Part shown: piece after piece, positions 5,669 to 32,000 of the stretch
How the letters are laid out: every line of letters begins with the position of its first letter
Numbering within the stretch: position 1 is the stretch's first letter
Source of the DNA: Candidatus Saccharimonadota bacterium
GTDB taxonomy: Bacteria > Patescibacteriota > Microgenomatia > UBA1406 > GWC2-37-13
NCBI GenBank assembly: GCA_016432445.1
Contig: CP066689.1
Span: 510,001 to 542,000 of the forward strand
Direction: 5' to 3'
DNA length: 32,000 nt
The notes under the pieces: generated by a model
The model's database searches: none
What the model was told of the DNA's origin: nothing
What the model saw: the letters and a program-made list of their open reading frames with translations, nothing else
Made by a program: the position numbers and the translations under genes

Positions 5669-5739
5669 AGCTTTTCTTGGCACTATGCCGCGTTGGTAAT
5701 CGGTACCAAAGCGATCAAATGTTGCGACGCGGTGCGTTC

Positions 5740-5850
5740 GGGGAAGAAGAACTGGTAAATGTTCAAGATGTCGTCCTCGGCTGATTTTCAGCCGGGAACA
5801 CGACGTTTTGACCGTCACCTTTTCACTTCTTCCCCGATTCCTTTTTTTTT
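5740..5850 (+). terminator. compound hairpin plus T9 (terminator-like structured 3' region)
   Basis: GGGGAAGAAG (5740-5749) pairs with CTTCTTCCCC (5826-5835). Enclosed are GTCGT..CGGCTGA-TTT-TCAGCCG..ACGAC (5770-5804). A T9 run follows at 5842-5850. Confidence 0.5.
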
Positions 5851-5959
5851 CTTCAAATAAAATTCTTAAATTTGTTGTTTATAGTCTATTGTAGAAATAA
5901 ATCTCCGTTAGCAAAATAAATTTGTGTATCAGAGATCAAATACAAGGAAATTAAATAGA

Positions 5960-6424
5960 ATGAAAGGTTTTAGTTACTCAAGTAATGGATATTATTTTGT
6001 GACAATTTGTACGCAAGAAAGGAATGAATGGTTTGGAGATGCTATTAATGGGAAAATGGTTTTAAATAGATATGGGGAAACTGTAAAAAAACAATGGTTA
6101 TGGTTGGAAAAACAATTTAAATATGTGTATTTAGATGAATGGATTATTATGCCAGATCATTTTCATGGAATTATTATGATTAATGATTTAAAATCGGTAG
6201 GGACAGGTCGCGACCTGTCCCTACAAATGAAACATAAAATAAAATCATTATCGGAGTTAATGGGTGTTTTTAAAACAACCTCATCAAAATTAATTCATAA
6301 AACAGGTTTAAATGGGTTTCATTGGCAACGTTCCTTTTACGATCACATCATCCGTAATGAAATTGAATTAAATGAAATCAGACAATACATACGTTCAAAC
6401 CCTTCAAATTATGATAATGATTAG
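5960..6424 (+). CDS. IS200/IS605-type Y1 HUH transposase-like protein (REP-associated tyrosine transposase-like, COG1943-type)
   Basis: YFVTICTQERNEWFG N-terminal strand, HUH motif MPDHFHGIIMI, and C-terminal WQRSFYDHIIRNE with the catalytic-type Tyr. ATG 5960 is preferred over the track GTG 5924. No tnpB partner and no obvious element ends were seen. Confidence 0.8.
   Translation: MKGFSYSSNGYYFVTICTQERNEWFGDAINGKMVLNRYGETVKKQWLWLEKQFKYVYLDEWIIMPDHFHGIIMINDLKSVGTGRDLSLQMKHKIKSLSELMGVFKTTSSKLIHKTGLNGFHWQRSFYDHIIRNEIELNEIRQYIRSNPSNYDND
6197..6224. repeat. 28-bp perfect GC-rich palindrome embedded in frame in the transposase-like gene
   Basis: GTAGGGACAGGTCG|CGACCTGTCCCTAC, verified base by base. 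It encodes VGTGRDLSLQ between the HUH motif and the Tyr motif. Confidence 0.95.
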
Positions 6425-20105: not shown

Positions 20106-21038
20106 TTACCATTTTCCACTCTCATAATCTATATCACCATTGAATTTTAATTCACCTTTTTTTTCTAGATCTTTAATTTGTTTCCTAATATCTTCATTTG
20201 GTACAAAAAATGCTGTATTTATACGAAGTCCTATAGGAGCGCTGGTGGGTCTAACTTCTTCCAATACAGGAAAAACTGCTCTAAAATCGTCAATTTTTAA
20301 ATCTGATATATCAAGTGTGCCGCCTACTTTTCTGAGTTTTTTCATTGATACTAAACTGTTATTTAAAGAACAGTCCGCTACAACTTCCTCAAGTAAATCG
20401 AGCCTTTCAATACAAGTTCCGCTAAAATCAGCGTCTCCTCTCACTTTTTTTAATTTAGGTAATGATTTTAAGCTCTGAACATTATTTAAATCAAGACCGC
20501 CGGCTTCTTCTAAGCTTTCCAGCGATTCAATATTTGTGTTAGCGAAATTTGCATTACCGCCAATTCTTCTTAATCTTTTCATAGATCTTAAGCTGGAAGA
20601 ATTATTTACAAGAAGACTACCGTCAACTTCTTCAAGATAATCAATAAATGTCATTGCTTCGTTGTTACACCGTAAATCGCCAGTAATCTTTCTTATAAGA
20701 GACGGGATGTAGAAAATTTGAGCAAGAGGTCCGCCAGAATTTATAGCACAATCAATAATAACTCTTTGTGAGTTTTCAAAGCGGACAGATGATAAAAAAT
20801 CAGATATGTTTACGTGTGCACCATGAGGGTACCATTTTTTAAGCATTAGTATCACCTGTGATTGATATTTCTCAACAAATTTTTGTTTACTTGCATAAAT
20901 CTTAGCGATTAATTCTTCAGTTTGTACCAGCCCGGAAGGGTCTGACAATAATCGTGATACTTCAGCATCAGTAGTAGAGAATAAGCTCGAAAGAGACAAG
21001 ATTTCCTTTTGAAAAGTTTGGCAGTAGGCGGTGGTCAT
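20106..21038 (-). CDS. solenoid-repeat paralog 4
   Basis: Track ORF 20106..21062 begins at a TTG. ATG 21038 gives MTTAYCQTFQKE..., aligning with the other three N-termini. KWYPHG, FENSQRVII, YIPSLIRKITG. Units DYLEEVDG, ESLEEAGG, DLLEEVVA, PVLEEVRP alternate with RLRRIGGN, KLKKVRGD, KLRKVGGT. Tail ELKFNGDIDY. Confidence 0.8.
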   Translation of the reverse strand: MTTAYCQTFQKEILSLSSLFSTTDAEVSRLLSDPSGLVQTEELIAKIYASKQKFVEKYQSQVILMLKKWYPHGAHVNISDFLSSVRFENSQRVIIDCAINSGGPLAQIFYIPSLIRKITGDLRCNNEAMTFIDYLEEVDGSLLVNNSSSLRSMKRLRRIGGNANFANTNIESLESLEEAGGLDLNNVQSLKSLPKLKKVRGDADFSGTCIERLDLLEEVVADCSLNNSLVSMKKLRKVGGTLDISDLKIDDFRAVFPVLEEVRPTSAPIGLRINTAFFVPNEDIRKQIKDLEKKGELKFNGDIDYESGKW

Positions 21039-21114
21039 GATTTTAAGTATATAAAAAAACAATTGAATTCGTTAGGAGTTTTGCGTTATGGGTCTAGGTT
21101 GAACTTAATTCCTC

Positions 21115-21143
21115 TTGACATCTGATGGGAAATGGCGTTAAAT
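21115..21143 (+). promoter_or_regulatory. candidate dcw (mraZ) promoter, leaderless geometry
   Basis: Consensus TTGACA (21115-21120), 17-nt spacer, TTAAAT (21138-21143), then 8 nt to ATG 21152. ATGG motifs recur at 21132, 21142 and 21152 (10-nt phase). Confidence 0.5.
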
Positions 21144-21151
21144 GGTTATAT

Positions 21152-21547
21152 ATGGTTTTTTTTGGTGAATATGAAGTCTCATTTACGGCTCCGGGAAGAA
21201 TTATATTACCAAAAAAACTTAGAGAACTATTAAAAGGAAACGTTTTGGTTTTATCAAAAGGATTTGATTCATGCTTATCAGGTTATGACAAAGAAGATTG
21301 GGAAACGAGGGCTAAAAGTTTGCTTGGAGTATCACTTTTGGAAAAAGAGAATTTGGATAAAAAAAGATTTCTTTTTGCCTCAGCTGTGTACCTTGAAATA
21401 GATGATCAGGGAAGATTTGTGATCCCGCGGAATCTTTTGCTATATGCCAATCTGGAAGGAAAGGCTTGCATTATTGGAGCAGGAGATCATTTTGAGGTTT
21501 GGGATGTAAAAAAATGGCAAATATATCTTAAGGATGTTAAATCTTAA
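21152..21547 (+). CDS. mraZ: transcriptional regulator MraZ
   Basis: MVFFGEYEVSFTAPGRIILPKKLRE plus a second half, DDQGRFVIPRNL, giving two SpoVT/AbrB-like repeats. ATG 21152 gives the canonical MF.GEY N-terminus. First gene of the dcw cluster. Confidence 0.9.
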   Translation: MVFFGEYEVSFTAPGRIILPKKLRELLKGNVLVLSKGFDSCLSGYDKEDWETRAKSLLGVSLLEKENLDKKRFLFASAVYLEIDDQGRFVIPRNLLLYANLEGKACIIGAGDHFEVWDVKKWQIYLKDVKS

Positions 21548-21578
21548 AATCCAAATGTCAAATTTCAAATGTCAAATG
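21546..21578 (+). repeat. heptamer-phased dispersed repeat, copy a (mraZ|rsmH junction)
   Basis: AAAATCC AAATGTC AAATTTC AAATGTC AAATG. Contains the 19-nt core CAAATGTCAAATTTCAAAT (21552-21570). 25 nt (21546-21570) are identical to 24460-24484. Confidence 0.9.
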
Positions 21579-21591
21579 AGTTTAGTAATTC

Positions 21592-21646
21592 GGATTTTGA
21601 AATTTGGACTTGTTTTGATATTTGTCATTTGAGCTTTGACATTTTT
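21592..21646 (-). repeat. inverted, degenerate copy of the same repeat, head-to-head with copy a
   Basis: The reverse complement reads AAAAATGTCAAAGCTCAAATGACAAATATCAAAACAAGTCCAAATTTCAAAATCC. GCTCAAATGACAAAT matches copy d (GCTCAAATGTCAAAT) with 1 mismatch. Confidence 0.7.
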
Positions 21647-22516
21647 ATGCATACACCAGTTTTACTAGAAGAAGTAATAGAAGGCTTAGATGTAAAGAAA
21701 GATGGTCTATATATTGACGCCACTGTTGGAGAAGGCGGGCACCTTGTAAAAATTGCGGAAAAAGGCGGAAAAGTTTTGGCTTTGGACTGGGATGGAGCGC
21801 AAATATCAAATATCAAATGTCAAATGTCAAATTTGGAAAATGTGACTTTTGCTGTCTCCAATTTTAGCCAGATTGAAAAGAAAGCAAAAGAGTTAAATTT
21901 TTATCCAGTTGATGGAATTCTGTTTGACCTAGGGTTATCAATGAAACAGATTGCTGAAGGAGGCAGAGGGTTTTCTTATAGGAATCAAAATGAACCTTTG
22001 GATATGCGGATAAGTTTGTCCACTAAGGTTAATGCTAGCGATTTGGTAAATAGTTTAAGTGAGCAGGAACTTTATGAGATTTTTGCAAGTTATGGAGAGG
22101 AGATTTATTCCCAGGCTATAGCTCAAGCAGTAATTAGTTTTCGCATAAGAAGAAAGATAAAAACAGTTGGAGATATGATTAAAGCCATTGATTACGGAGT
22201 TAAAGATAAGGGTTTAAATGATCAATTTCAAAAAAATAAAGTCTATACACGTATTTTTCAAGCATTAAGAATTGCCGTTAACAAAGAGTTTGAAAATTTA
22301 AAAAAAGGCTTAAAACAAGCGATGGAGATTTTGAAACCGGGCGGAAGAATTGCGGTGATTACATTTCATTCCAGAGAAGACAGAATAGTTAAGCAATTTG
22401 CTCGAGAAAATGGTTGGGAAAGTACTCAAAAGAAAGTTATAGCTGGTGATAGGAGAATATCTTTTGAGAGATCCGCAAAGTTAAGGATTTTAATCCGCCA
22501 ACCGGCGGAAAATTAG
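21647..22516 (+). CDS. rsmH: 16S rRNA (cytosine1402-N4)-methyltransferase RsmH
   Basis: MHTPVLLEEVIEGL, SAM motif DATVGEGGH, FDLGLSMKQ, ITFHSREDRIVK. The track start 21569 adds 26 aa encoded by repeat DNA, so ATG 21647 is preferred. Confidence 0.9.
   Translation: MHTPVLLEEVIEGLDVKKDGLYIDATVGEGGHLVKIAEKGGKVLALDWDGAQISNIKCQMSNLENVTFAVSNFSQIEKKAKELNFYPVDGILFDLGLSMKQIAEGGRGFSYRNQNEPLDMRISLSTKVNASDLVNSLSEQELYEIFASYGEEIYSQAIAQAVISFRIRRKIKTVGDMIKAIDYGVKDKGLNDQFQKNKVYTRIFQALRIAVNKEFENLKKGLKQAMEILKPGGRIAVITFHSREDRIVKQFARENGWESTQKKVIAGDRRISFERSAKLRILIRQPAEN
21801..21835 (+). repeat. heptamer repeat array, copy b, in frame inside rsmH
   Basis: AAATATC AAATATC AAATGTC AAATGTC AAATTTG, translated as (Q)ISNIKCQMSNL(E) between the SAM-binding motif and the following strand. 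Confidence 0.85.
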
Positions 22517-22517
22517 T

Positions 22518-22790
22518 ATGAGCAGATTTATTTTATATATATTTTATATATGCTTTTTAGTGTTAGGCATAAGCCAAATATATCTTTTTGTGTCTGGAAT
22601 TAAAATTAGCGATAATATCAATATGTATGAATCAAACATTAAAAAATTAAAACAGGACAATATGGAACTTGAGAATAAACTTTCAAAAATAGAATCTTTA
22701 GGCTATGCCGCTTCCCAAGCTGCTGTTTTAAAGTATACTAAGAAAGCGGCGCCAATATATCTTGATAAGCCTGGAATCGCCAAGCTTTAA
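22518..22790 (+). CDS. ftsL: FtsL-like cell division protein (small bitopic coiled-coil protein)
   Basis: 90 aa. N-terminal TM (FILYIFYICFLVLGISQIYLFV) followed by a coiled coil (NIKKLKQDNMELENKLSKIE). Canonical position between rsmH and ftsI. The call rests on position and architecture. Confidence 0.55.
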   Translation: MSRFILYIFYICFLVLGISQIYLFVSGIKISDNINMYESNIKKLKQDNMELENKLSKIESLGYAASQAAVLKYTKKAAPIYLDKPGIAKL

Positions 22791-22797
22791 GTAATCT

Positions 22798-24456
22798 ATG
22801 CTTAAGATCAAAATTTTATTTCTTCTTATCACTATTTTCTTTGTTGCCATTATAGTTAAGCTCTTTATGATACAAGTCTTAAATACTTATAGTTATTCTG
22901 GAGATTATCTTCAATCACAAAAAATATATCCAGAGAGAGGAAAGATATATGATGTAAATAATCATTTGCTTGTAACAAACCAAACTAAATACTTGGTTTA
23001 TGCCGAACCAAAAAAAATTGAGAAAAAAAATTATATAGTGCGCGATTTAGAAAAAGTGCTTGAAATTGGTGAGGCTACTATAGAAGCTAAACTTGACTTA
23101 AGTAAAGACTGGGTGAGAGTGAAATCAGGTGTCAGCAAAGATAAAAAGGATGAGATTAGCAAATTACATATAAACGGTATTGGATTTCAGGAAGAACAAT
23201 ATAGAGCTTATCCTGAAGCTTCCTTATCAGCTCATCTTTTGGGATTTGTTGGAAAAAATAAAAGCGGAGAGGATATTGGATATTTTGGAATAGAAGGTTA
23301 TTATGAAAAGGAATTAACTGGTTTGGCAGGAATGATGAAATCTGAAAGAGATTTGCTTGGAAGACCGATATTTATTGGAACCCAAGAAAAGGTAGATCCT
23401 CAAAACGGTGGAGACTTGATATTAACTATTGATAGTGCTGTTCAAACACTAGTTAAAAAGAAATTGCTTAAAGGTTTAGAAACATATGAGGCTAAAGAAG
23501 GATGCGTTATTGTTGCAGATCCTAATACGATGAAAATAATGAGTATGGTTTGTTTACCTGATTTTGATCCAGATCAGTATTATCTTTTCAGTGAGGATTT
23601 ATTTAAAAATGCAGCTATCTCAAATCTTTACGAACCTGGATCAACTTTTAAACCTTTAGTTGTAGCTGTCGCTATTGAGGAGAAGGCTATCAAGCCTGAT
23701 GATTTTATGCAGGAAGATGGTCCGATTACGATAGGAGAGTACACAATAAGAACCTGGAATGATAAGTATGAAGGCAAAATATCCATGACCAGAGTGCTGG
23801 AAAAATCATCTAATGTCGGTATGGTTTATATAGGCAGTAAGCTGGGCAATGACAAACTTTATCAATATTTGAAAAAATACCGTTTTGGAAAAGAAACAGG
23901 TATTGATCTTCAGGGAGAAACATCAGGATACTTGAAGGATCAAAAGGACTGGTATCCAATTGACTACTCGACAGTTAGTTTTGGACAAGGTATTGCTGTA
24001 ACTCCCATACAAATGATTCGTGCTTTTACGGCTTTAATTAATGGAGGTAATCTTCTTAAGCCTTACGTTGTTGACAAAGTTGTGACTAATAATAATGAAA
24101 GAAAACAGGAGGCAACGGTAGTGAGTAAGGTTATAAGTGATCGGACGTCGCAAATTATAAAAAAAATGCTCGTTTCAACAGTTGAGAATGGTGAACTAAA
24201 ATGGTTAAAGCCTATTGGCTATAAAATAGGGGGAAAAACAGGGACAGCGCAGATTCCTATAAAAGGCCATTATGATGAATCAAAAACTATTGCTTCATTT
24301 ATTGGCTTTGCACCGGCAGATAAACCTAAGTTTATAGCTTTAGTAATTGTGAGGGAGCCAAAGGCTTCCCAGTGGGGTTCTGAAACAGCGGCTCCGATAT
24401 TTTTCGATATAGCTAAGGAGCTGCTTTTATACTATAATATAGCTCCAGACCGTTAA
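22798..24456 (+). CDS. ftsI: penicillin-binding protein, class B transpeptidase (FtsI/PBP2B-like)
   Basis: 552 aa. N-terminal TM and PBP dimerisation region. Transpeptidase motifs STFKP (SxxK), SSN (SxN) and KTGTA (KTG). Confidence 0.9.
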   Translation: MLKIKILFLLITIFFVAIIVKLFMIQVLNTYSYSGDYLQSQKIYPERGKIYDVNNHLLVTNQTKYLVYAEPKKIEKKNYIVRDLEKVLEIGEATIEAKLDLSKDWVRVKSGVSKDKKDEISKLHINGIGFQEEQYRAYPEASLSAHLLGFVGKNKSGEDIGYFGIEGYYEKELTGLAGMMKSERDLLGRPIFIGTQEKVDPQNGGDLILTIDSAVQTLVKKKLLKGLETYEAKEGCVIVADPNTMKIMSMVCLPDFDPDQYYLFSEDLFKNAAISNLYEPGSTFKPLVVAVAIEEKAIKPDDFMQEDGPITIGEYTIRTWNDKYEGKISMTRVLEKSSNVGMVYIGSKLGNDKLYQYLKKYRFGKETGIDLQGETSGYLKDQKDWYPIDYSTVSFGQGIAVTPIQMIRAFTALINGGNLLKPYVVDKVVTNNNERKQEATVVSKVISDRTSQIIKKMLVSTVENGELKWLKPIGYKIGGKTGTAQIPIKGHYDESKTIASFIGFAPADKPKFIALVIVREPKASQWGSETAAPIFFDIAKELLLYYNIAPDR

Positions 24457-24459
24457 ATA

Positions 24460-24494
24460 AAAATCCAAATGTCAAATTTCAAATTCCAAATACA
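24460..24494 (+). repeat. heptamer-phased dispersed repeat, copy c (ftsI|murE junction; contains the murE ATG)
   Basis: AAAATCC AAATGTC AAATTTC AAATTCC AAATACA. The 19-nt core lies at 24466-24484. The murE start codon (24469) is the ATG inside the core. Confidence 0.9.
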
Positions 24495-25704
24495 AAAATT
24501 AAAGAATTTTTATCATCTTCTTCAATCAATCTTAGCGAATGTTTACTATGGTTTTCCAAGCAAAAAATTAAAGGTGATTGGAATAACTGGGACAGATGGC
24601 AAAACTACAACAACTCACCTTGTTTATAATATTCTTATCTCTTCAGGCAAGAAAGCGTCAATGATTTCAACCGTATATGCTAAAATCGGGAATGAAGAAT
24701 ATGATACTGGTTTACATACGACTACTCCTAATTCTTTTCAAATACAAAAATTATTAAAAAAAGCAGTGGAGGCTGGCCACGAATACTTTGTTTTAGAAAC
24801 AACATCTCACGCGCTTGATCAAAACAGAGTTTTTGGTATAAATTTCGAAGTTTCAGCCATAACTAATATTAGTCATGAACATTTTGATTATCATCTTAAT
24901 TTTGATAATTATCTGCAGGCAAAATTAAAATTACTTCTTAATTCAAAAGTTTCACTTATAAATAATGATGATCTTTTTGCAAAAAGAATTCAAGGTTCGC
25001 TAAATCAAAACAGAAAAAAATTTTATTCTCTCGCACTAAAAAATAAAGCTGATTTTCAGTTTGATTATAAATCTAAATATGATCAAAATTTAGCTACTTT
25101 TAACAATTACAATTTTTTAACTGCTTTCAGTATTGCTAAACTTTTGGGGATTGACGAAGAGAAGATAATTAAGGCAATGAAAAGTTTTACTTTACCTCTA
25201 GGCCGTTACGATACTGTTTATGATAAAGATTTTCAGGTAGTGGTTGATTTTGCTCATGCTCCTAATGCCATTGGCAATGTACTTTTTAATCTCAAAGAAA
25301 GATTAAAAGGTAATGGAAAACTAATTCATGTTTTTGGATCCGCCGGCAATCGGGATAAAAGCAAAAGGCCGATCATGGGTGAAGAAAGCGGTAAGTATGC
25401 CGATATTACTATCCTAACTGAGGACGATCCAAGAAGTGAGGATGTAGTTACAATTTGCAAAGAAATATCTGAAGGTTTAAGAAAATACGGATTTAGTTAT
25501 TCATCTAATGTAAATTCAGAAAGCGTTAAAAAGTACACGATTATTCCTGATAGAGAAAAGGCAATTAAAAAATCATTAGAGATTGTCGGAAAAGGTGACA
25601 TTATTGCTTTGACTGGAAAAGGACATGAAAGAGGTTTGGCAAGAAAGGTAGAGGTTCCGTGGAATGAAAAAGAACTTGTACTTAAATTATTAAAAGAAAA
25701 ATGA
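24469..25704 (+). CDS. murE: UDP-N-acetylmuramoyl-L-alanyl-D-glutamate--diamino-acid ligase (MurE), short N-terminus
   Basis: GITGTDGKTTT, ETTSHAL, NISHEHFDYH, DFAHAPNA, GSAGNRDKSKRPIMG, and TEDDPRSED (a variant of the MurE DNPR motif). The first about 10 aa (MSNFKFQIQK) are repeat-encoded, so the exact start is uncertain. Confidence 0.85.
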   Translation: MSNFKFQIQKLKNFYHLLQSILANVYYGFPSKKLKVIGITGTDGKTTTTHLVYNILISSGKKASMISTVYAKIGNEEYDTGLHTTTPNSFQIQKLLKKAVEAGHEYFVLETTSHALDQNRVFGINFEVSAITNISHEHFDYHLNFDNYLQAKLKLLLNSKVSLINNDDLFAKRIQGSLNQNRKKFYSLALKNKADFQFDYKSKYDQNLATFNNYNFLTAFSIAKLLGIDEEKIIKAMKSFTLPLGRYDTVYDKDFQVVVDFAHAPNAIGNVLFNLKERLKGNGKLIHVFGSAGNRDKSKRPIMGEESGKYADITILTEDDPRSEDVVTICKEISEGLRKYGFSYSSNVNSESVKKYTIIPDREKAIKKSLEIVGKGDIIALTGKGHERGLARKVEVPWNEKELVLKLLKEK

Positions 25705-26453
25705 TTAAATTTGGTGAACATGGGTTTTATTACTCAACATTAATTAATGATGATAATTATTTCTCCGGTTTTAGTTCCAAAGAGTTAGGAGATGGTACAC
25801 AGGTTGAAAATATATTCAGATTTTTAGAGAAGAATAATATTGACTATAAAAAAGTCGTAAAGCTGGATCAGATTCATTCATCAAATATTGAGTTTTTTAT
25901 AAATGCCCCTTCTTCGCCAACTTCAAAAAATACCAGATTCGAAAAAATTGAAGATACTGATGGAGTCATTACAGAGGATGAAGGAGTGTTTATCACGGTT
26001 CAGACCGCAGACTGCATACCTTTAATATTAGTAGATAAAAAAATAGGAATAATTGGCGTTTCTCACCAGGGGTGGAGAGGGCTTTTAAAAAGATTACCGA
26101 TTAAGATGGTTCAAAAGATGGTTGAAATGGGTTCCCAAGTTAAAGATGTCGTAGCCTCCATTGGTCCGGCTATTGGAGTCTGCTGTTATGAAATTGGGGA
26201 AGACTATTATCATGATTTTCAGGAAGAGTTTGAATCATACGTGAATAAGATATTTAAAGTTAAAGGCGGTAAGTTTTATTTAAATCTTAATCTGTTAACT
26301 TTTTTACTTTTGATTGACGCAGGAGTTAAAAAAGAAAATATTGATTTTTTTCCATTCTGCACGAAGTGTCAAAAAGATAAATTCTACTCCTTCCGCCGCG
26401 AAGGCAAAAGCCTCGAAGGCGAAATGTTCAGTTTCATAATGAAGAGATCATAA
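25701..26453 (+). CDS. pgeF: peptidoglycan editing factor PgeF / YfiH (DUF152, Cu-oxidase_4 family)
   Basis: QIHS, TADCIPL, HQGWRG, CCYEIG, FYSFRREG. The start overlaps the murE stop (ATGA). Confidence 0.85.
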   Translation: MIKFGEHGFYYSTLINDDNYFSGFSSKELGDGTQVENIFRFLEKNNIDYKKVVKLDQIHSSNIEFFINAPSSPTSKNTRFEKIEDTDGVITEDEGVFITVQTADCIPLILVDKKIGIIGVSHQGWRGLLKRLPIKMVQKMVEMGSQVKDVVASIGPAIGVCCYEIGEDYYHDFQEEFESYVNKIFKVKGGKFYLNLNLLTFLLLIDAGVKKENIDFFPFCTKCQKDKFYSFRREGKSLEGEMFSFIMKRS

Positions 26454-26517
26454 AACAATAGCCACTTCCAATTTAGCCTCATTCCACCCCGTACGTGGTT
26501 TAGCCGTAAAAAGAAAT

Positions 26518-26526
26518 TGGTACAAT
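26518..26526 (+). promoter_or_regulatory. extended -10 element, leaderless geometry, for ORF 26533
   Basis: TGgTACAAT (26518-26526), then 6 nt to ATG 26533. The -35 is poor (TTAGCC-like). Confidence 0.35.
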
Positions 26527-26532
26527 ATAACT

Positions 26533-27291
26533 ATGAAAGAAAGAGCTGAAATTGGAATTGGTCTTTTGAACACTGAAAGAAAGCGGATGAGCGCATTCCT
26601 TAGAAAATTTATTCCCCATGTAAAACCTAATAAATTAGTAGCCTGTGGTGGTCTTGCAACACGTTATCATCTGCAAACTCATGGTATCACGTTTCCTCAA
26701 AGACCTTTTAATGACCTTGATTTATTGATAAAAGCTGCAGATGATATTTTGCCTTCCATAACCTCGGATTTTATGCTTTATCACTATCATCCCGCGGGTG
26801 TTGATGATCCGATAGAAAAAACATATTTTTTTTACGCTTTCATTGATCCGGAAACAAAAATTAAAGCAGATGTTTTTCCCTATCGTTGGTCTTCACCAAA
26901 GCGTTTTATTCAAGCTACTTTTAAAGGAAAACTACTTCCCATTGTTGGCGCAGAAGACCAGCTTATCCAATGTCTTTATGATGTCTCAAGAATATCAGAG
27001 ACTATGAAAGTTGACCCTAAACAGTTACAAGATGTTCATTCTCTTTTACAAATTACCGATACTAGTCTCGCTGAACAAATATGGCGAAGCAACAGTCATC
27101 CTTTATATCCTAAAACTCTTCACGAGGCGCTTTTAAGGGCGGACTCAATAGTAAAAGAACATCCTGATTGGTGGAAAGAAAAGCCTTATAGAAAACCAAA
27201 GCCATATCAATGTCAAAATTGTCAAGCCCGACCTGTATTCGCGATTACAGATATGACTAAAATATATGAAATCTTAGGATACGTTGAATAA
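26533..27291 (+). CDS. hypothetical protein, possibly a minimal nucleotidyltransferase fold
   Basis: 252 aa. ACGGLA...(about 20 aa)...NDLDLLI...IKADVF loosely fits the pol-beta NTase pattern (G[GS], DxD, downstream acidic residue). C-terminal CQNCQ. Sits between pgeF and murC. The family assignment is unverified. Confidence 0.3.
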   Translation: MKERAEIGIGLLNTERKRMSAFLRKFIPHVKPNKLVACGGLATRYHLQTHGITFPQRPFNDLDLLIKAADDILPSITSDFMLYHYHPAGVDDPIEKTYFFYAFIDPETKIKADVFPYRWSSPKRFIQATFKGKLLPIVGAEDQLIQCLYDVSRISETMKVDPKQLQDVHSLLQITDTSLAEQIWRSNSHPLYPKTLHEALLRADSIVKEHPDWWKEKPYRKPKPYQCQNCQARPVFAITDMTKIYEILGYVE

Positions 27292-27329
27292 ATCCAATCC
27301 TTCTCAGAGTGGGAAAAAGCTGTGAAAAA

Positions 27330-27338
27330 TGGTAAAAT
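27330..27338 (+). promoter_or_regulatory. extended -10 element, leaderless geometry, for murC
   Basis: TGgTAAAAT (27330-27338), then 6 nt to ATG 27345. No SD. Confidence 0.4.
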
Positions 27339-27344
27339 TAGGAT

Positions 27345-28772
27345 ATGGTTGAAGAGGTAAAGAATGTGTTTATTTTGGGGATAAAAGGTGTGGCTATGGC
27401 CAACCTTGCTGTGATCCTCAAAAAAATGGGTAAGAATGTAACTGGTTCAGATGTAGACGAAGAATTTATAACTGATGAACTTCTTAATAAGAATAGTATT
27501 GGCTGGTCTATTGGCTTTGATCCTCAAAATATTCCTCAAGAGACTGATTTGCTGGTCTATTCAGCTGCCCACAATGGTAAAAATAATCCTCAAGTCCAAT
27601 ACGCTTTAGAAAAAGGAATAAAAGTTTTAAATCAGGCTGATTTGCTATCTGAAATAATGAATCTACATGAAAATAAAATTGCTGTTTGCGGCAGTCATGG
27701 AAAAACTACAACGACAGCTCTTATTGCTTTTTGTTTAAAGAAACTGGGAGTTAATCCAACATATATGGTTGGCACTTCCTATTTCAGCGGACAGGAAGGT
27801 GGAAATCTTGGCGATAAAAAATATTGCGTTATTGAAGCTGATGAGTATGGCGTTGATCCTCCAAACGATAAAACTCCAAAATTTCAAAAACTTGAACCAA
27901 ATTATATTGTGTCAACTAATATCGATTTCGATCATCCGGACATTTTCAGTAGTATTGAAGAAACGAAATCAGCATTTTATCTTTTTTTCCAAAAATTAGT
28001 TAATATCGATGAACGTAGATTATTTTTGTGCGCTGATGATCAGAAATTAATGGGAGTTGCTTCTCAATTGCAAATGATTACTTATAAAACTTTTGGTTTT
28101 AGTGAAAAAGCTGATTTCGTTATTAAAAATATTCAAACTGATGAAACTCATTGTCAGTTTGAGCTTTATGAAGGCGATAAAAAAGTGGACGAGTTTACTT
28201 TATTAATTTTTGGTGAAAAAAATATTTCTAATGCCGCCGGAGCCATTGTTCTTTTGCTTAATCTTGGATTTTCAAGCGAAGCTATAAAAAACGTAATAAG
28301 TCTTTTTACGGGAGCTAAAAGAAGATTTGAACAAACAGCTTTTGTAAACAATATTTATTTGTTTGATGATTATGCTCATCATCCGCAAGAAATAGAGGCA
28401 ACATTGAACGCGGCCAGATTGAGGTTTAATAACCGCCGTATTATTCTTGTTTTCCAGCCTCATACCTACTCAAGGACAGAATCTTTGAAGGAAGAATTTG
28501 TAAAATCATTAGCAAAAGCTGATTTATCATTAATAGCACCGATTTTTGCATCCGCTCGGGAGACACTCGGATTAAATTTAATCAGTTCTTCAAAACTTGC
28601 AGAGATGGCTTCTCAAAGGGGCGTTTCTACGATTTTCTCCTACTCGACTAAGGCAGAGTTAATTGATCGTTTAAAGTCAGATTTACGGCCGGGAGATGTT
28701 ATTTTTACTATGGGCGCAGGCGACATTTATAAGGTAAAAAATGATATAATTAGTCTTATTAGAACAGTCTAA
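27345..28772 (+). CDS. murC: UDP-N-acetylmuramate--L-alanine ligase
   Basis: 475 aa. N-terminal Rossmann GIKGVAMANLA, P-loop GSHGKTTTTA, DDYAHHPQEI. Full-length Mur ligase organisation typical of MurC. Confidence 0.9.
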   Translation: MVEEVKNVFILGIKGVAMANLAVILKKMGKNVTGSDVDEEFITDELLNKNSIGWSIGFDPQNIPQETDLLVYSAAHNGKNNPQVQYALEKGIKVLNQADLLSEIMNLHENKIAVCGSHGKTTTTALIAFCLKKLGVNPTYMVGTSYFSGQEGGNLGDKKYCVIEADEYGVDPPNDKTPKFQKLEPNYIVSTNIDFDHPDIFSSIEETKSAFYLFFQKLVNIDERRLFLCADDQKLMGVASQLQMITYKTFGFSEKADFVIKNIQTDETHCQFELYEGDKKVDEFTLLIFGEKNISNAAGAIVLLLNLGFSSEAIKNVISLFTGAKRRFEQTAFVNNIYLFDDYAHHPQEIEATLNAARLRFNNRRIILVFQPHTYSRTESLKEEFVKSLAKADLSLIAPIFASARETLGLNLISSSKLAEMASQRGVSTIFSYSTKAELIDRLKSDLRPGDVIFTMGAGDIYKVKNDIISLIRTV

Positions 28773-28781
28773 ATAAATGTT

Positions 28782-28809
28782 AAAGCTCAAATGTCAAATT
28801 TCAAATATT
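28782..28809 (+). repeat. heptamer-phased dispersed repeat, copy d (murC|murB junction)
   Basis: AAAGCTC AAATGTC AAATTTC AAATATT. The 19-nt core lies at 28788-28806. It ends 4 nt before the murB ATG (28814). Confidence 0.9.
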
Positions 28810-28813
28810 TTTT

Positions 28814-29764
28814 ATGAAAAATGATTTAATAATTAAAGAGCTTGAGAGTATTTTTGGCAAGGACAGAATCAAAGTTGATCAAAATCTTTCTTTTTATTTA
28901 ACTTTACGCACACAAACTAAAGCCCAGTATTATCTTGAGGCAGAATCACGTGAAGATTGGGTTAAGGTGGGACAAATAAAAGCTTCCAAAAAGATTCCCA
29001 TTTTTATTATGGGCGGCGGTTCAAATCTGGCAATTATTACTGATTACATTAATGGTTTGGTAGTGAGGAACCTGTATCAGAAAAAAGAAGTTATTGCTGA
29101 AACTGAAGATTACGTTGATCTTTTAGTATCTTCAGGCTATGTTGTTGCCCGGCTAGTTATCGAAACCATTAAAGAAGGTTGGGGTGGGTTAGAATATCAT
29201 CAAGGTCTTCCCGGTACAGTAGGAGGCGCGATCTTCATGAACTCAAAGTGGGCAAAACACCATTCTTATTTTGGTGATCAATTGTTATATGCTTATTTAC
29301 TCGAAACTAATGGTGAGATTAAAAAAGTAGATCATGATTACTTTAAATTCCGCTATGATCATAGCGTGCTTCAGGAAACGGGTGAAATACTTATTGAGGC
29401 AGTCTTTCGATTAAAAAAAGAGATGCCTCAAGTGCTTCAAAAAAAAGCTCAGGAAGCTTTAAATTACCGGTCAGAAACTCAGCCTAAAGGTATTGCCACC
29501 AGCGGTTGTTTTTTTAAAAATATTTCAGAAGATATTAAACTGAGATTAAAATTGCCGACAACCTCAGCAGGATATTTAATTGAACATGCAGGTTTGAAAA
29601 ACTTAAGGGTTGGTGATTTTGTTGTTTCAAGTATGCATGCTAACTTTATTATCAATGAAGGATCAGGGAAAGCTGAGGACTTAATAAAATTATTAAAGCT
29701 TATTAAAGACAAGGTAAAAGAAAAGTTCGGTATTGATTTGGAAGAGGAAGTGGTCGTCATTTGA
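28814..29764 (+). CDS. murB: UDP-N-acetylenolpyruvoylglucosamine reductase
   Basis: 316 aa. FAD-binding GGGSNL, GLPGTVGGA, SGCFFKN, and a C-terminal MurB domain. Confidence 0.9.
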   Translation: MKNDLIIKELESIFGKDRIKVDQNLSFYLTLRTQTKAQYYLEAESREDWVKVGQIKASKKIPIFIMGGGSNLAIITDYINGLVVRNLYQKKEVIAETEDYVDLLVSSGYVVARLVIETIKEGWGGLEYHQGLPGTVGGAIFMNSKWAKHHSYFGDQLLYAYLLETNGEIKKVDHDYFKFRYDHSVLQETGEILIEAVFRLKKEMPQVLQKKAQEALNYRSETQPKGIATSGCFFKNISEDIKLRLKLPTTSAGYLIEHAGLKNLRVGDFVVSSMHANFIINEGSGKAEDLIKLLKLIKDKVKEKFGIDLEEEVVVI

Positions 29765-29855
29765 TCTTGGATTTTCGATCTGAGATCTTTGACGTTGATT
29801 AATATAATTATTTTTAATAATCTTTGATCTAATATTAAAGATCTAAAATCTAAAT
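29763..29855. repeat. GATCT-rich inverted heptamer arrays in the murB|murA spacer; includes a TAAAAT -10-like element 6 nt before the murA ATG
   Basis: Five GATCT in 82 bp (29763, 29777, 29784, 29826, 29840), two of them as AGATCT. The left part read on the minus strand gives AAAGATC TCAGATC GAAAATC CAAGATC. The right part read on the + strand gives AAAGATC TAAAATC TAAAT-ATG. TAAAAT at 29844-29849. Confidence 0.6.
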
Positions 29856-31184
29856 ATGGAAGATGCTTATATTGTAAAGGGTGGAAAAAAACTTAAAGGA
29901 AATGTCGTAATTTCAGGAGCAAAAAATGTGGCCCTAAAAGCAATAATAGCTTCTTTGCTGTTTGAGGGATATGTTATTTTAGAGAATGTTCCCCGAATAA
30001 ATGATGTTGATGAGTTAATGAATTTGATAAGAGCACTTGGCGCAAAAGCCGCATTTAGTGAAAAAAATAAAGTAAAGATAGATTCATCAATAATGGATAA
30101 AAATAAAGTAGATCTGCTTCATGCTTCAAAGATTCGAGTTTCCTTTATGTTATTTGCTCCTTTGCTTCATAGATTTAAGAAATGTTATGTGCCAAATCCA
30201 GGCGGCTGTCGTATTGGAGCCAGGCCTATAGATAGAATTATTGAGGGTATGAAACAATTAGGAGTTAAAGTTAACTATAATTCAGGAACGGGTTTTTATA
30301 AAGCAGAGATGAAGGAAGAAGGCATTAAAGGTGAATATACCTTTGGTAAGCCGTCACATACTGGTACAGAAATTTTAATTATGCTCTCAGCTTTAGGTAA
30401 AAATAAGGTAATTCTTAATAATACAGCTTTAGAACCTGAGGTGGATGAGCTTATAAAATTTTTAAATGAGTCAGGGGCAGATATTAAGAAAGAAGGCAGC
30501 AGGATTTTAATAAAAGGTGTATCCAAACTTGTTCAAAAAAAACCTTTTCAGATCATGTCTGATCGGAATGAAGCGGTAACATTTGCAGTATTGGCTGTAG
30601 CCACAAAAGGAGAAGTGACAATTGAGAAGATTCCGATTTTTTTAATTGAAGAATTTATAAAATGCCTTAAAAAAGCAGGCGGTGGAGTAGAAATTTACAA
30701 CAATCAAAAGGTTAGATTTTTTTACCATGAAAGTTTAAATTCTTTAAACATAGAGACATCACCTCACCCCGGTTTTATGACTGATTGGCAGCCAAACTGG
30801 GCAGTGCTTATGACTCAAGCTAAGGGCGAGTCAATAATACATGAAAGAGTTTTTGAAAATAGATTTTCATATGTAAACGAATTAAAAAAATTAGGTGCTA
30901 AAATTGAATTTATTCCTTTAGGTGTAGCTAATCCAAAAGACTTTTACAATTTTGACTATAACCCAGAGAAAATATATCAGCAGGCAATTAAGATCACAGG
31001 ACATACACCTCTTCATAATGCAGCGTTGCAGATCAAGGATTTAAGAGCCGGTGCCAGCTTAATAATTGCTGCACTGGTGGCAACCGGTGAATCAGTTGTT
31101 CAAGGCGCATCCATTGTTGAGCGTGGCTATGAAGACTTTGAAAAAAAGGTACAGCTTTTAGGAGGAAAAGTTAAAAAAATATAA
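29856..31184 (+). CDS. murA: UDP-N-acetylglucosamine 1-carboxyvinyltransferase
   Basis: 442 aa. ISGAKNVALK, and the active-site loop PNPGGCRIGARPID with the catalytic Cys. EPSP-synthase-like fold sequence throughout. Confidence 0.93.
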   Translation: MEDAYIVKGGKKLKGNVVISGAKNVALKAIIASLLFEGYVILENVPRINDVDELMNLIRALGAKAAFSEKNKVKIDSSIMDKNKVDLLHASKIRVSFMLFAPLLHRFKKCYVPNPGGCRIGARPIDRIIEGMKQLGVKVNYNSGTGFYKAEMKEEGIKGEYTFGKPSHTGTEILIMLSALGKNKVILNNTALEPEVDELIKFLNESGADIKKEGSRILIKGVSKLVQKKPFQIMSDRNEAVTFAVLAVATKGEVTIEKIPIFLIEEFIKCLKKAGGGVEIYNNQKVRFFYHESLNSLNIETSPHPGFMTDWQPNWAVLMTQAKGESIIHERVFENRFSYVNELKKLGAKIEFIPLGVANPKDFYNFDYNPEKIYQQAIKITGHTPLHNAALQIKDLRAGASLIIAALVATGESVVQGASIVERGYEDFEKKVQLLGGKVKKI

Positions 31185-31199: not shown

Positions 31200-32000
31200 A
31201 TGGTGCAGATTGACAATATACTTTTGCTAGCTGGGGGGGATTCTACGAGATTTTGGCCTCTTAAAGAAAAAAACTTAATGAAATATTTGGGTAAAACACT
31301 TATCGTTCATCAAATTGATCAATTAGCTAAAAAGTCTGATCGTTTGATAATCGTGGCGGGAATTCACAATAAAGAAGCAATAGAAAAGATTGTTGAACAA
31401 CAGCCGGAAATTAGCGGTTGCGCAATTGAGATAATTCTTCAAAATGAAAAGTTAGAAGGTCAAGGAGGGGCAGTACTTTCGGCTAAAGGTAAAGTAAATG
31501 GAGATGTATTGATATGTAATACCAATGATATTTTTGATTATTCTTTTATAGATAAACTAGCAGAAACTAAAGAAAAAAAAGATTTTATTTTTTTAGCTAA
31601 AAAAGTAAATGAATATTTTCCCGGAGGCTATGTTGAGTTTGATGAAAACAATAAAATCAAAGGAATCATTGAAAAACCTGATCCTGAAAAAGTTCCTTCT
31701 GACATCACAAAACTTGTTGTTGATTATTTTGCTGATTTTGAAGAGCTTACAAGTGCATTAGAAAAAGTTACAACTGATAAAGATGACTGGTATGAACAGG
31801 CTTTATGCAAGATTATTGAAAAGACTAATAACTCAGATTATCTGCTTTATGACAGCTATTGGTACACTATTAAATATCCTTGGCATATACTTGATATGAA
31901 TAATTATTTTCTTTCTCAGATTAAGCAAACTTATATCGATAAAAGCTCATTAATATCAAAAAATGCAGTTCTTGAAGGAATGGTGCATATCGGAAAAAAT
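31200..32000 (+). CDS. sugar-phosphate nucleotidyltransferase (GlmU/RmlA-like NTP_transferase), 5' partial, runs off the window
   Basis: Not in the ORF track because no stop is reached. My translation from ATG 31200 is stop-free for 267 codons: MVQIDNILLLAGGDSTRFWPLKEKNLMKYLGKTLIVHQI... The LAGGxSTRFWPL motif matches the G-rich nucleotide-binding loop of this family. Confidence 0.7.
   Translation, partial: MVQIDNILLLAGGDSTRFWPLKEKNLMKYLGKTLIVHQIDQLAKKSDRLIIVAGIHNKEAIEKIVEQQPEISGCAIEIILQNEKLEGQGGAVLSAKGKVNGDVLICNTNDIFDYSFIDKLAETKEKKDFIFLAKKVNEYFPGGYVEFDENNKIKGIIEKPDPEKVPSDITKLVVDYFADFEELTSALEKVTTDKDDWYEQALCKIIEKTNNSDYLLYDSYWYTIKYPWHILDMNNYFLSQIKQTYIDKSSLISKNAVLEGMVHIGKN

Follow-up and report, generated by a model that had tools for sequence, protein, structure and literature searches.

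The 19-nt sequence that recurs in the division and cell wall (dcw) gene cluster of a Candidatus Saccharimonadota bacterium is probably not a dcw element at all. The copies are best read as arms of a genome-wide family of palindromic repeats built from 7-nt units, gene-less derivatives of a cassette resembling the intervening sequences (IVSs) of 23S rRNA genes, which would be selfish DNA without a role in the dcw cluster. The DNA analysed, called the window, is a stretch of 32,000 nt (contig CP066689.1, positions 510001-542000) from a genome consisting of a single 1,103,789-bp contig with 35% G+C. Among the three candidate roles offered in the original prediction, which was made from the window alone, only a small non-autonomous mobile repeat fitted the evidence, and its refinement into a derivative of an IVS-like heptamer-arm cassette is supported by the results below.

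The 19-mer, CAAATGTCAAATTTCAAAT, was identified exactly at 21552-21570, 24466-24484 and 28788-28806, in the spacers between the genes of MraZ and RsmH, of an FtsI-type penicillin-binding protein and MurE, and of MurC and MurB, as had been predicted. With up to three mismatches it matched 12 times in the window against 0.07 expected, none of 100 dinucleotide-preserving shuffles reached 12, and period 7 was reported by Tandem Repeats Finder at all three sites. The 19-mer had been described as always lying on the + strand, which was true for the window and not for the genome, where nine exact copies were on the + strand and three on the - strand. The 25 identical nt that had been assigned to the first and third copies belong to the first and second (AAAATCCAAATGTCAAATTTCAAAT, at 21546 and 24460), while the first and third share the 19-mer only.

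In the mraZ/rsmH spacer the 19-mer was part of a complete hairpin. The sense arm (21546-21579, + strand), composed of the units AAAATCC, CAAATGT, CAAATTT, CAAATGT and CAAATGA, begins within the TAA stop codon (21545-21547) of mraZ (21125-21547), and a degenerate antisense arm of ANATTTG units (21592-21646, - strand) has its 3' limit 1 nt from the rsmH ATG at 21647. The idea that this inverted copy could pair with the first copy proved right, since the partner exists and the 106-nt spacer folded as RNA into one long imperfect hairpin with a minimum free energy (MFE) of -26.7 kcal/mol (z -3.4, equalled by 0 of 200 shuffles), with an AU-rich stem of about 35 imperfect pairs. As DNA the same spacer gave -13.8 kcal/mol (z -2.4). 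The rsmH start at 21647 (MHTPV) was conserved in 23 relatives, so the extension of this open reading frame (ORF) to 21569 is spurious and the whole hairpin is spacer, not coding sequence.

The other two exact copies were solo sense arms. One was located at the junction of ftsI (22798-24456) and murE (24469-25704), covering 24460-24493 (+ strand; AAAATCC, CAAATGT, CAAATTT, CAAATTC, CAAATAC), and was unstructured as RNA (MFE -0.8, z +1.1). Another covered 28781-28808 (+ strand; TAAAGCT, CAAATGT, CAAATTT, CAAATAT) in the spacer between murC (27345-28772) and murB (28814-29764, followed by murA); it began 9 nt past the murC stop, stopped 5 nt short of the murB ATG at 28814, and had no significant fold (MFE -8.6, z +0.2). 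A fourth array, missed in the original prediction, was present in frame within rsmH (21800-21834, + strand) with five units, two of CAAATAT, two of CAAATGT and one of CAAATTT, encoding QISNIKCQMSN. The dcw cluster therefore holds one complete hairpin, two solo sense arms and one in-frame array; these copies had a 12-nt loop or lacked the second arm, and none contained an ORF of Pfam family PF05635.

Heptamer runs near metG and murA had also been called related to the 19-mer, and both were real, although they are of the sister unit types AAATCTA and AGATCTN. The metG run was a short solo sense arm (2451-2475, - strand; TAAAATC, TAAAATC, CAAATTT, CTAATG...) that occupied the entire spacer from the upstream stop codon to the metG ATG at 2450. 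The murB/murA spacer carried a hairpin of AGATCTN / AAATCTA units (29765-29855, + strand; MFE -20.1, z -2.1), which includes the murA run and belongs to a sister family, not to that of the 19-mer. No Rfam match at gathering threshold was obtained for the whole window.

When period-7 arrays were defined by a self-similarity of at least 16/21 matches, 267 were found in the whole genome, against 8, 29, 10, 66 and 11 at lags of 5, 6, 8, 9 and 10. Several unit families coexisted, including AGATCTN, CAAATNT, GATTCAT, GGGTTAT, TTCGATA and others. For the CAAATNT family, with an arm taken as no more than two mismatches to three units, 103 arms in 74 clusters (about 74 loci) were obtained. Twenty-two clusters were pairs of a sense arm followed by an antisense arm, two had a sense arm followed by two antisense arms, and the reverse order was never found. 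Many apparent single arms had a degenerate partner arm. The layout of the element was 5'-AAATCC-(CAAATNT)3-7 - short loop - (ANATTTG)3-7 - GGATTT-3', the arms having 3-7 units with a mode of 4 (modal length 4-5 units) and at least eight unit variants mixed within them. The arms also had a polarity: the outer unit was typically xAAAATC, which often overlapped a TAA stop, and the inner unit was CAAATCA or CAAATGA.

According to a crude ORF call, 51 of the 74 clusters (69%) were located in spacers (8% of the genome) and 23 in ORFs. The spacer clusters were co-directional in 33 cases, convergent in nine and divergent in nine, so that divergent spacers held 18% of the spacer clusters against 27% of the spacer bases. 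Sixteen of the 22 pairs began no more than 30 nt after the stop codon of the gene reading into them, compared with about 20% of random spacer positions. The arrays had been thought to be placed relative to the downstream gene; in fact they begin 0-25 nt past the preceding stop codon, which is their anchor, and the distance to the next start was unconstrained. Genome-wide, the placement favoured spacers and stop codons and was not tied to the dcw cluster or to start codons. Solo arms were oriented 14 vs 7 relative to genes and 12 vs 9 relative to the leading strand, many of these "solos" having a degenerate partner. Arrays accumulated in the genome zones 1000-1100 kb and 0-90 kb, next to the origin placed by GC skew at about 95 kb.

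The 19-mer had been described as a core, which is misleading, for it is merely the commonest units CAAATGT and CAAATTT (with CAAAT) side by side. At least 19 exact bases were shared by 8.4% of distant arm pairs and, with p 0.13, by not significantly more (11.8%) of the arms located no more than 10 kb apart, so the 19-mer is not a conserved core. A local burst as the source of the dcw copies was rejected on the same comparison.

Near-identical copies were present at unlinked loci. Genome positions 262051-262158 and 34085-34192 matched at 97% identity over 108 nt and had unrelated flanks. This duplicate was bounded by AAATCCAAAT...ATTTGGATTT, its common block running from AAAATCCAAAT to ATTTGGATTT(A), and a third copy at genome position 776900 was 94-95% identical over 78 nt.

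The arms could also be connected with a gene. Four PF05635 (23S_rRNA_IVP, here IVP) genes were identified in the genome, each enclosed by inverted heptamer arrays and each with its own unit (TTCGATA, GGGTTNT, GATTCAT and CAAATNT), and three of the four lay in the array-rich zones beside the origin. The CAAATNT-flanked gene (genome 31516-31890, 124 aa), whose ATG is inside an array, stood between AAATCC(CAAATNT)n and (ANATTTG)nGGATTT, the arms of the family described above; its product matched TIGR02436 (E 8e-20) and PDB 2RLD (E 1e-12), a four-helix bundle. In a related genus, G004, an IVP gene was again located between CAAATNT arms, and its product was 60% identical to that of 31516-31890, with no detectable similarity to another IVP of this genome. 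At one G004 locus (L223, G004:C21, 700-765) a G+C-rich double palindrome, CCCAGTACC...GGTACTGGG and CCCTGAACC...GGTTCAGGG, was observed between the IVP gene and the right CAAATNT arm; it looks as if a different element had been inserted within the cassette.

Among 30 IVP loci in relatives, period-7 arrays were present on both flanks in 11 and on one flank in five. A wider set of 80 IVP loci was taken across phyla, from the candidate phyla radiation (CPR), Bacteroidota, Acidobacteriota, Planctomycetota, Omnitrophota and archaea. Period 7 occurred on both flanks in 18 of them, the two flanks being complementary in 15 of the 18, and on one flank in 13; period 8 occurred on both flanks in 16 and on one flank in 18 (Flavobacterium and others, loci L143-L222), and periods 5, 6 and 9 gave only 0-1. 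In the dcw loci of relatives, which were picked regardless of IVP, arrays numbered 1.37 per 10 kb where the relative had an IVP gene and 0.11 where it had none (rho 0.56, p 0.0045, a statistic that ignores kinship, the relatives not being independent). No hit was given by PADLOC for the IVP proteins, and no paper was found in the literature in which dispersed heptamer hairpins are connected with IVP genes or with CPR genomes. We take the IVP/S23p proteins to be relatives of Avd, the accessory protein of diversity-generating retroelements.

Arrays were also tolerated within coding sequence. A 7-nt repeat gives one and the same 7-residue periodic peptide in any frame; the sense arm has no stop codon, while every frame of the antisense arm contains TGA, and the copies deep within ORFs were therefore all sense-oriented, the few antisense arms falling in probable spurious 5' ORF extensions. 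These in-gene copies were 21-35 nt long and consisted of the sense arm only. In rsmH, whose product was 58% identical to its best match in metagenome contigs, which held no close strain, the array caused no indel compared with 22 orthologues, the native sequence being replaced at the same length. Different units occupied the same rsmH codons in five genera with the length unchanged: CAAATNT in this genome, four TCAAAAG in G009, four TTCAACG in G003, four to five TTAAACG in G001 and three to four TTAAAAG in G011. Two of these units are resident families of their genomes: TCAAAAG gave 31 hits in G009, with 0 for the reversed-pattern control and 0-12 in the other four genomes (the 12 in G011), and one of its pairs flanked an IVP gene; TTAAACG was largely confined to G001 (15 hits vs 0-2 elsewhere). 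TTCAACG was found in G003 at the rsmH site only, and for TTAAAAG in G011 the reversed-pattern control equalled the signal. Either the resident family has repeatedly overwritten an old array at the rsmH site, by ectopic conversion that keeps the 7-nt register, or this site has been a target many times. In the RsmH of G011 (L025) a 22-residue in-frame insertion, EVSRHPEFISGSESKKQMLKRVQ, directly followed the heptamer-coded segment (aligned to about 21835 of the window), and its DNA contained a short inverted repeat, CCTGAATTTATTTCAGG; possibly this is a further small element that entered the reading frame at the same rsmH hot spot.

For murE, the only available in-frame start codon (ATG, 24469-24471) lies in the array, which encodes the first seven residues, and MurE of the relatives aligned from residue 8-9.

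The three dcw junctions were compared in 24 genomes belonging to the same family and order, the genera of which carry G-numbers. The orthologous mraZ/rsmH, ftsI/murE and murC/murB spacers were mostly 4-25 nt long and empty, with some of the genes overlapping. Other repeat families occurred at these junctions in G013, G001, G002 and G009, such as unrelated repeats at all three junctions in G013 and a CTTGTAA hairpin at ftsI/murE in G001, and in G003 the dcw spacers were filled by 8-nt units, AATTAACG (loci L015 and L063). The 19-mer with at most one mismatch was present in 10 of the 41 genomes searched, this one included, and was abundant only in G004, G005, G033 and G036. By comparison, none of the 25 genomes searched, the 24 relatives plus the present one, lacked MraZ. 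With MraZ in every one of these genomes, the motif in few relatives and the orthologous spacers mostly empty, a conserved function that depends on the sequence and serves MraZ or the dcw genes is ruled out.

The proposal that the arrays are operators of MraZ or of some other dcw regulator is thus extremely improbable, and this candidate was rejected. It has proximity in its favour, one element being directly 3' of mraZ and three lying within the cluster. That element begins in the stop codon of mraZ, downstream of the gene, and no family match was found in the 62 nt upstream (21062-21124); the family is spread over about 74 loci of the genome, and the exact 19-mer was shared no more by neighbouring arms than by distant ones. 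We infer that the elements do nothing specific to the dcw cluster and do not serve as MraZ sites. The second proposed role, an internal promoter, UP-like or translation-initiation element, found no support either: the dcw region had 36 promoter-like sites against 32.5 in shuffles, even though one array does supply the murE ATG.

At the RNA level, the elements are probably transcribed within dcw mRNA. Since the hairpin abuts the rsmH ATG, and rsmH, ftsL and ftsI succeed one another with gaps of 1-7 nt, the transcript has to include at least its 3' arm, and the hairpin could not be an efficient terminator. It would mask the initiation region of rsmH and, by analogy with the 23S IVS of Coxiella, is a plausible substrate of RNase III, the gene of which lies at about 675.8 kb in the genome. 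The solo arms would serve as unstructured, G-poor leaders, one of them co-opted as the murE start codon. Judged with crude longest-ORF starts, leaders near predicted starts were enriched in A and depleted in G, and Shine-Dalgarno enrichment was absent (GGAG/GAGG/AGGA at -20..-5 in 7.4%, vs 9.6% in the -40..-25 control), so a CAAAUNU run is compatible with the normal leader composition. The 3' end of the 16S rRNA (genome about 697550) was nevertheless the canonical GATCACCTCCTTTC.

For the mode of spread, the full-length cassette would be represented by the genome 31.5 kb copy, with its PF05635/TIGR02436 (IVP/S23p, Avd-like) gene between arms, and the dcw copies would be its gene-less miniatures. 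Whole elements would be copied into new spacers, and their arrays afterwards reshuffled and overwritten unit by unit via slippage and ectopic gene conversion. They would persist where harm is least, just past stop codons, or sense-oriented in tolerant protein segments. Several points weigh against this selfish-cassette reading. The evidence for mobility is paralogous copies, which ectopic gene conversion could also yield; no target-site duplication was visible at the one clean paralogous pair (262051/34085), and no recognisable transposase was found for the elements. Unit order was shuffled between copies, which is unexpected for a simple cut-and-paste element. Arm complementarity was 77% within a hairpin and 80% to the arms of other loci, so the covariation that might have been expected for the inverted pair gave no arm-to-arm signal; the stems are a generic result of a common unit vocabulary rather than maintained pair by pair, and the hairpins are not recent palindromic duplications. 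A code by which the protein would specify the unit was rejected, as IVP and unit similarity were uncorrelated over 49 IVP loci (rho -0.02) and only the closest pairs shared units. We know of no catalytic activity or nucleic-acid binding specificity of IVP. Finally, the tight stop-codon anchoring and the shortage in divergent spacers would also fit a selected 3'-end function.

Such a function would make the elements host-selected RNA punctuation, that is an attenuator or terminator, a 3'-end stabiliser, or an RNase III site uncoupling cistrons such as mraZ from rsmH-ftsL-ftsI. The start of elements 0-25 nt past stops, the nine clusters between convergent genes, the significant hairpin fold and the RNase III gene all speak for it, as do the analogous Coxiella IVS stem, which is cut by RNase III (PMC4990558), and the heptamers of Xanthomonas and Nostoc, which likewise prefer the 50 nt past stops (PMC4692102). 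It is nonetheless unlikely. The AU-rich stems are interrupted by a mismatch roughly once per 7 nt, and in the scan of 20900-30000 no element was called as an intrinsic terminator (short G+C-rich stem and U tract), terminator-like sites being at shuffle level (5 vs 5.0). A transcript of rsmH-ftsL-ftsI must run through the hairpin. Divergent spacers contain nine of the clusters, and of the three dcw copies only one folds, the other two being solo arms; the orthologous spacers of most relatives are empty, and the arms do not covary. At the other extreme, purely local microsatellites, formed in place by slippage on an AT-rich seed (TAAAT after stops) without copying between loci, could account for arms of 3-7 units in shuffled order and for the replacement of native rsmH sequence without indel, and heptamer excess has been ascribed to polymerase slippage (PMC4692102). 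This is very unlikely, for slippage should give homogeneous units, while at least eight variants with fixed polarity were seen; the inverted arm is always 3' of the sense arm (22 pairs to none), the same arms enclose a gene, and the 108-nt composites 97% identical at unlinked loci largely refute it.

The IVP link raises a further alternative, in which arrays of 4-5 heptamers are a platform for a resident protein, most obviously a pentameric IVP, that drives copying or homogenisation, in the manner of the repetitive extragenic palindromes (REPs) and their REP-associated tyrosine transposases (RAYTs). All IVP genes here, and many across phyla, are inside inverted arrays, and arrays were about 12-fold denser in IVP-positive relatives. 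The modal arm has 4-5 units, the deposited entry of the nearest solved structure, 2RLD, contains five chains, the S23p of Xanthomonas campestris is cited as a homopentamer in PMC4990558, and the CAAATNT-IVP pairing was maintained across two genera. Against these stand the lack of a known binding specificity or enzymatic activity of IVP, the failure of IVP similarity to predict the unit, with proteins 55-62% identical carrying different units, the equal service of period-8 arrays in other lineages, the absence of a reverse transcriptase from the genome, and the disregard of kinship in the cross-genome correlation, so that the alternative appears improbable. A stronger form, in which heptamer and octamer arrays are the working substrate of IVP/S23p proteins and form with them an undescribed mobile or sequence-rewriting system, the protein loading on 4-5 tandem units and promoting copying or templated overwriting of arrays, is doubtful too. 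If true, it would explain the packaging of IVP genes across phyla, the near absence of arrays from IVP-negative relatives and the rewriting of rsmH without change of length.

With the dcw copies read as miniatures of a selfish cassette, a false lead towards a dcw/MraZ operator is removed from the annotation, the rsmH start is corrected to 21647, and the murE start is recognised as donated by a repeat. A 1.1-Mb CPR genome with several heptamer families offers a compact system for the origin of such repeats and a possible involvement of IVP/S23p; the heptamer repeats of cyanobacteria, Xanthomonas and Beggiatoaceae and that of the Coxiella IVS were reported without explanation. Frameshift-prone 7-nt repeats kept in frame in housekeeping genes bear on how far very small genomes tolerate selfish DNA. 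Elsewhere in the dcw cluster, a Cu-oxidase_4 (YfiH/PgeF-like) gene (25701-26453) overlapped the preceding murE by 4 nt, and a 252-aa ORF following it (26533-27291) had no Pfam or NCBIfam match.

Among the closest known systems are the ORF-bearing 23S IVSs of Coxiella and Leptospira. In Coxiella burnetii, the helix-45 IVS consists of an S23p ORF between terminal inverted repeats that form a stem in which RNase III cleaves, with two to four tandem GACAGAT units, strain-variable in number, in the 5' region just upstream of the ORF, and ORF-bearing IVSs are regarded as selfish elements (PMC4990558). An inverted-repeat stem around a PF05635/S23p ORF is likewise found in the genome 31.5 kb copy with its CAAATNT arms, and tandem heptamers stand inside the element in both systems. 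The copies studied here differ in lying between or within protein-coding genes rather than in helix 25 or 45 of 23S rRNA, and most of them, all the dcw ones included, have lost the ORF or retain a single arm. Cleavage by RNase III, which cuts the Coxiella stem, is only predicted here by analogy.

Dispersed heptamers form several classes in bacteria, among them the short tandemly repeated repetitive (STRR) sequences of cyanobacteria. Further classes are GGGAATC in Xanthomonas and GGGGAYT in Nostoc (Rehm et al. 2015, PMC4692102) and the TAACTGA repeats of Beggiatoaceae, cyanobacteria and Bacteroidetes (MacGregor 2015, PMC4679880). The CAAATNT family resembles them in its dispersed tandem 7-nt units, with about four preferred, in direct and inverted arrangements; in its intergenic bias, the enrichment of the sense strand up to 50 nt past stops and the depletion between divergent genes; and in being without an established role or a connection with gene function. 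Its units are AT-rich and unable to form G-quadruplexes, the inverted-pair hairpin is dominant, and several families share one 1.1-Mb genome, which sets it apart, and a link to IVP genes was not drawn in PMC4692102 or PMC4679880. In the P6b stem-loop of the Nostoc tRNA-Leu(UAA) intron (trnL), built of class I or II heptamers, Class II was replaced by Class I repeatedly, in different lineages, and indels come in 7-nt steps (PMC4476775). A unit class swapped between lineages at a fixed site is also what is seen at rsmH, although the Nostoc site is in a group I intron with only two classes described and the present one is an in-frame protein-coding segment.

Like REP/RAYT systems (REPtrons) and miniature inverted-repeat transposable elements (MITEs), the family consists of tens of short palindromes situated downstream of genes, in many cases convergent ones, with a gene-bearing version between the same inverted repeats and whole-element copies at unlinked loci. 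REPs have no heptamer periodicity, and the elements here have no 5' GTAG. Compared with MITEs, the family does have terminal inverted repeats and a parent copy with a gene, while no target-site duplication is visible at the one clean pair and the cargo is no known transposase. The genome does have three RAYT-like genes matching Pfam Y1_Tnp (window 5924-6424, +; genome 467221-467892, -; genome 954257-954937, -), and no heptamer arrays were found at their flanks. The one in the window matched NCBIfam NF047646 (REP-associated tyrosine transposase) with E 2.8e-18 and 66 bits, under the cut-off of 80. A second, unrelated dispersed palindrome, GTAGGGACAGGTCGCGACCTGTCCCTAC, is perfect, 28 nt long, G+C-rich and REP-like (GTAG...CTAC); it was located at window 6197-6224 and 12 other genome sites (e.g. 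17567, 174174, 1053129 and 1060851), 13 in all with up to three mismatches. Twelve of the 13 copies were within ORFs, encoding VGTGRDLSL, one of them in the RAYT-like ORF itself, and this family is possibly the partner of the RAYT-like genes. The G+C-rich spacer 5' of the RAYT-like gene (window 5690-5840) had many inverted repeats (e.g. TCGGGGAAGAAG / CTTCTTCCCCGA, 76 nt apart) and resembled a structured RNA, without an Rfam match at gathering threshold.

Rickettsia palindromic elements (RPEs) are insertions of 100-150 bp with a fixed consensus that also occur in frame inside conserved protein genes. They are similar to the present family as dispersed palindromic repeats which enter conserved genes in frame and leave them intact; in contrast to them, the in-gene copies described here are 21-35 nt sense arms, and the rsmH copy replaces sequence without changing its length. 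The present contribution lies in the tests made on the dcw junctions, an account of the 19-mer, the lack of covariation between the arms and the negative result for a protein-to-unit code; new as well are the genus-specific in-frame units at constant length in the same rsmH codons and the murE start supplied by an array.

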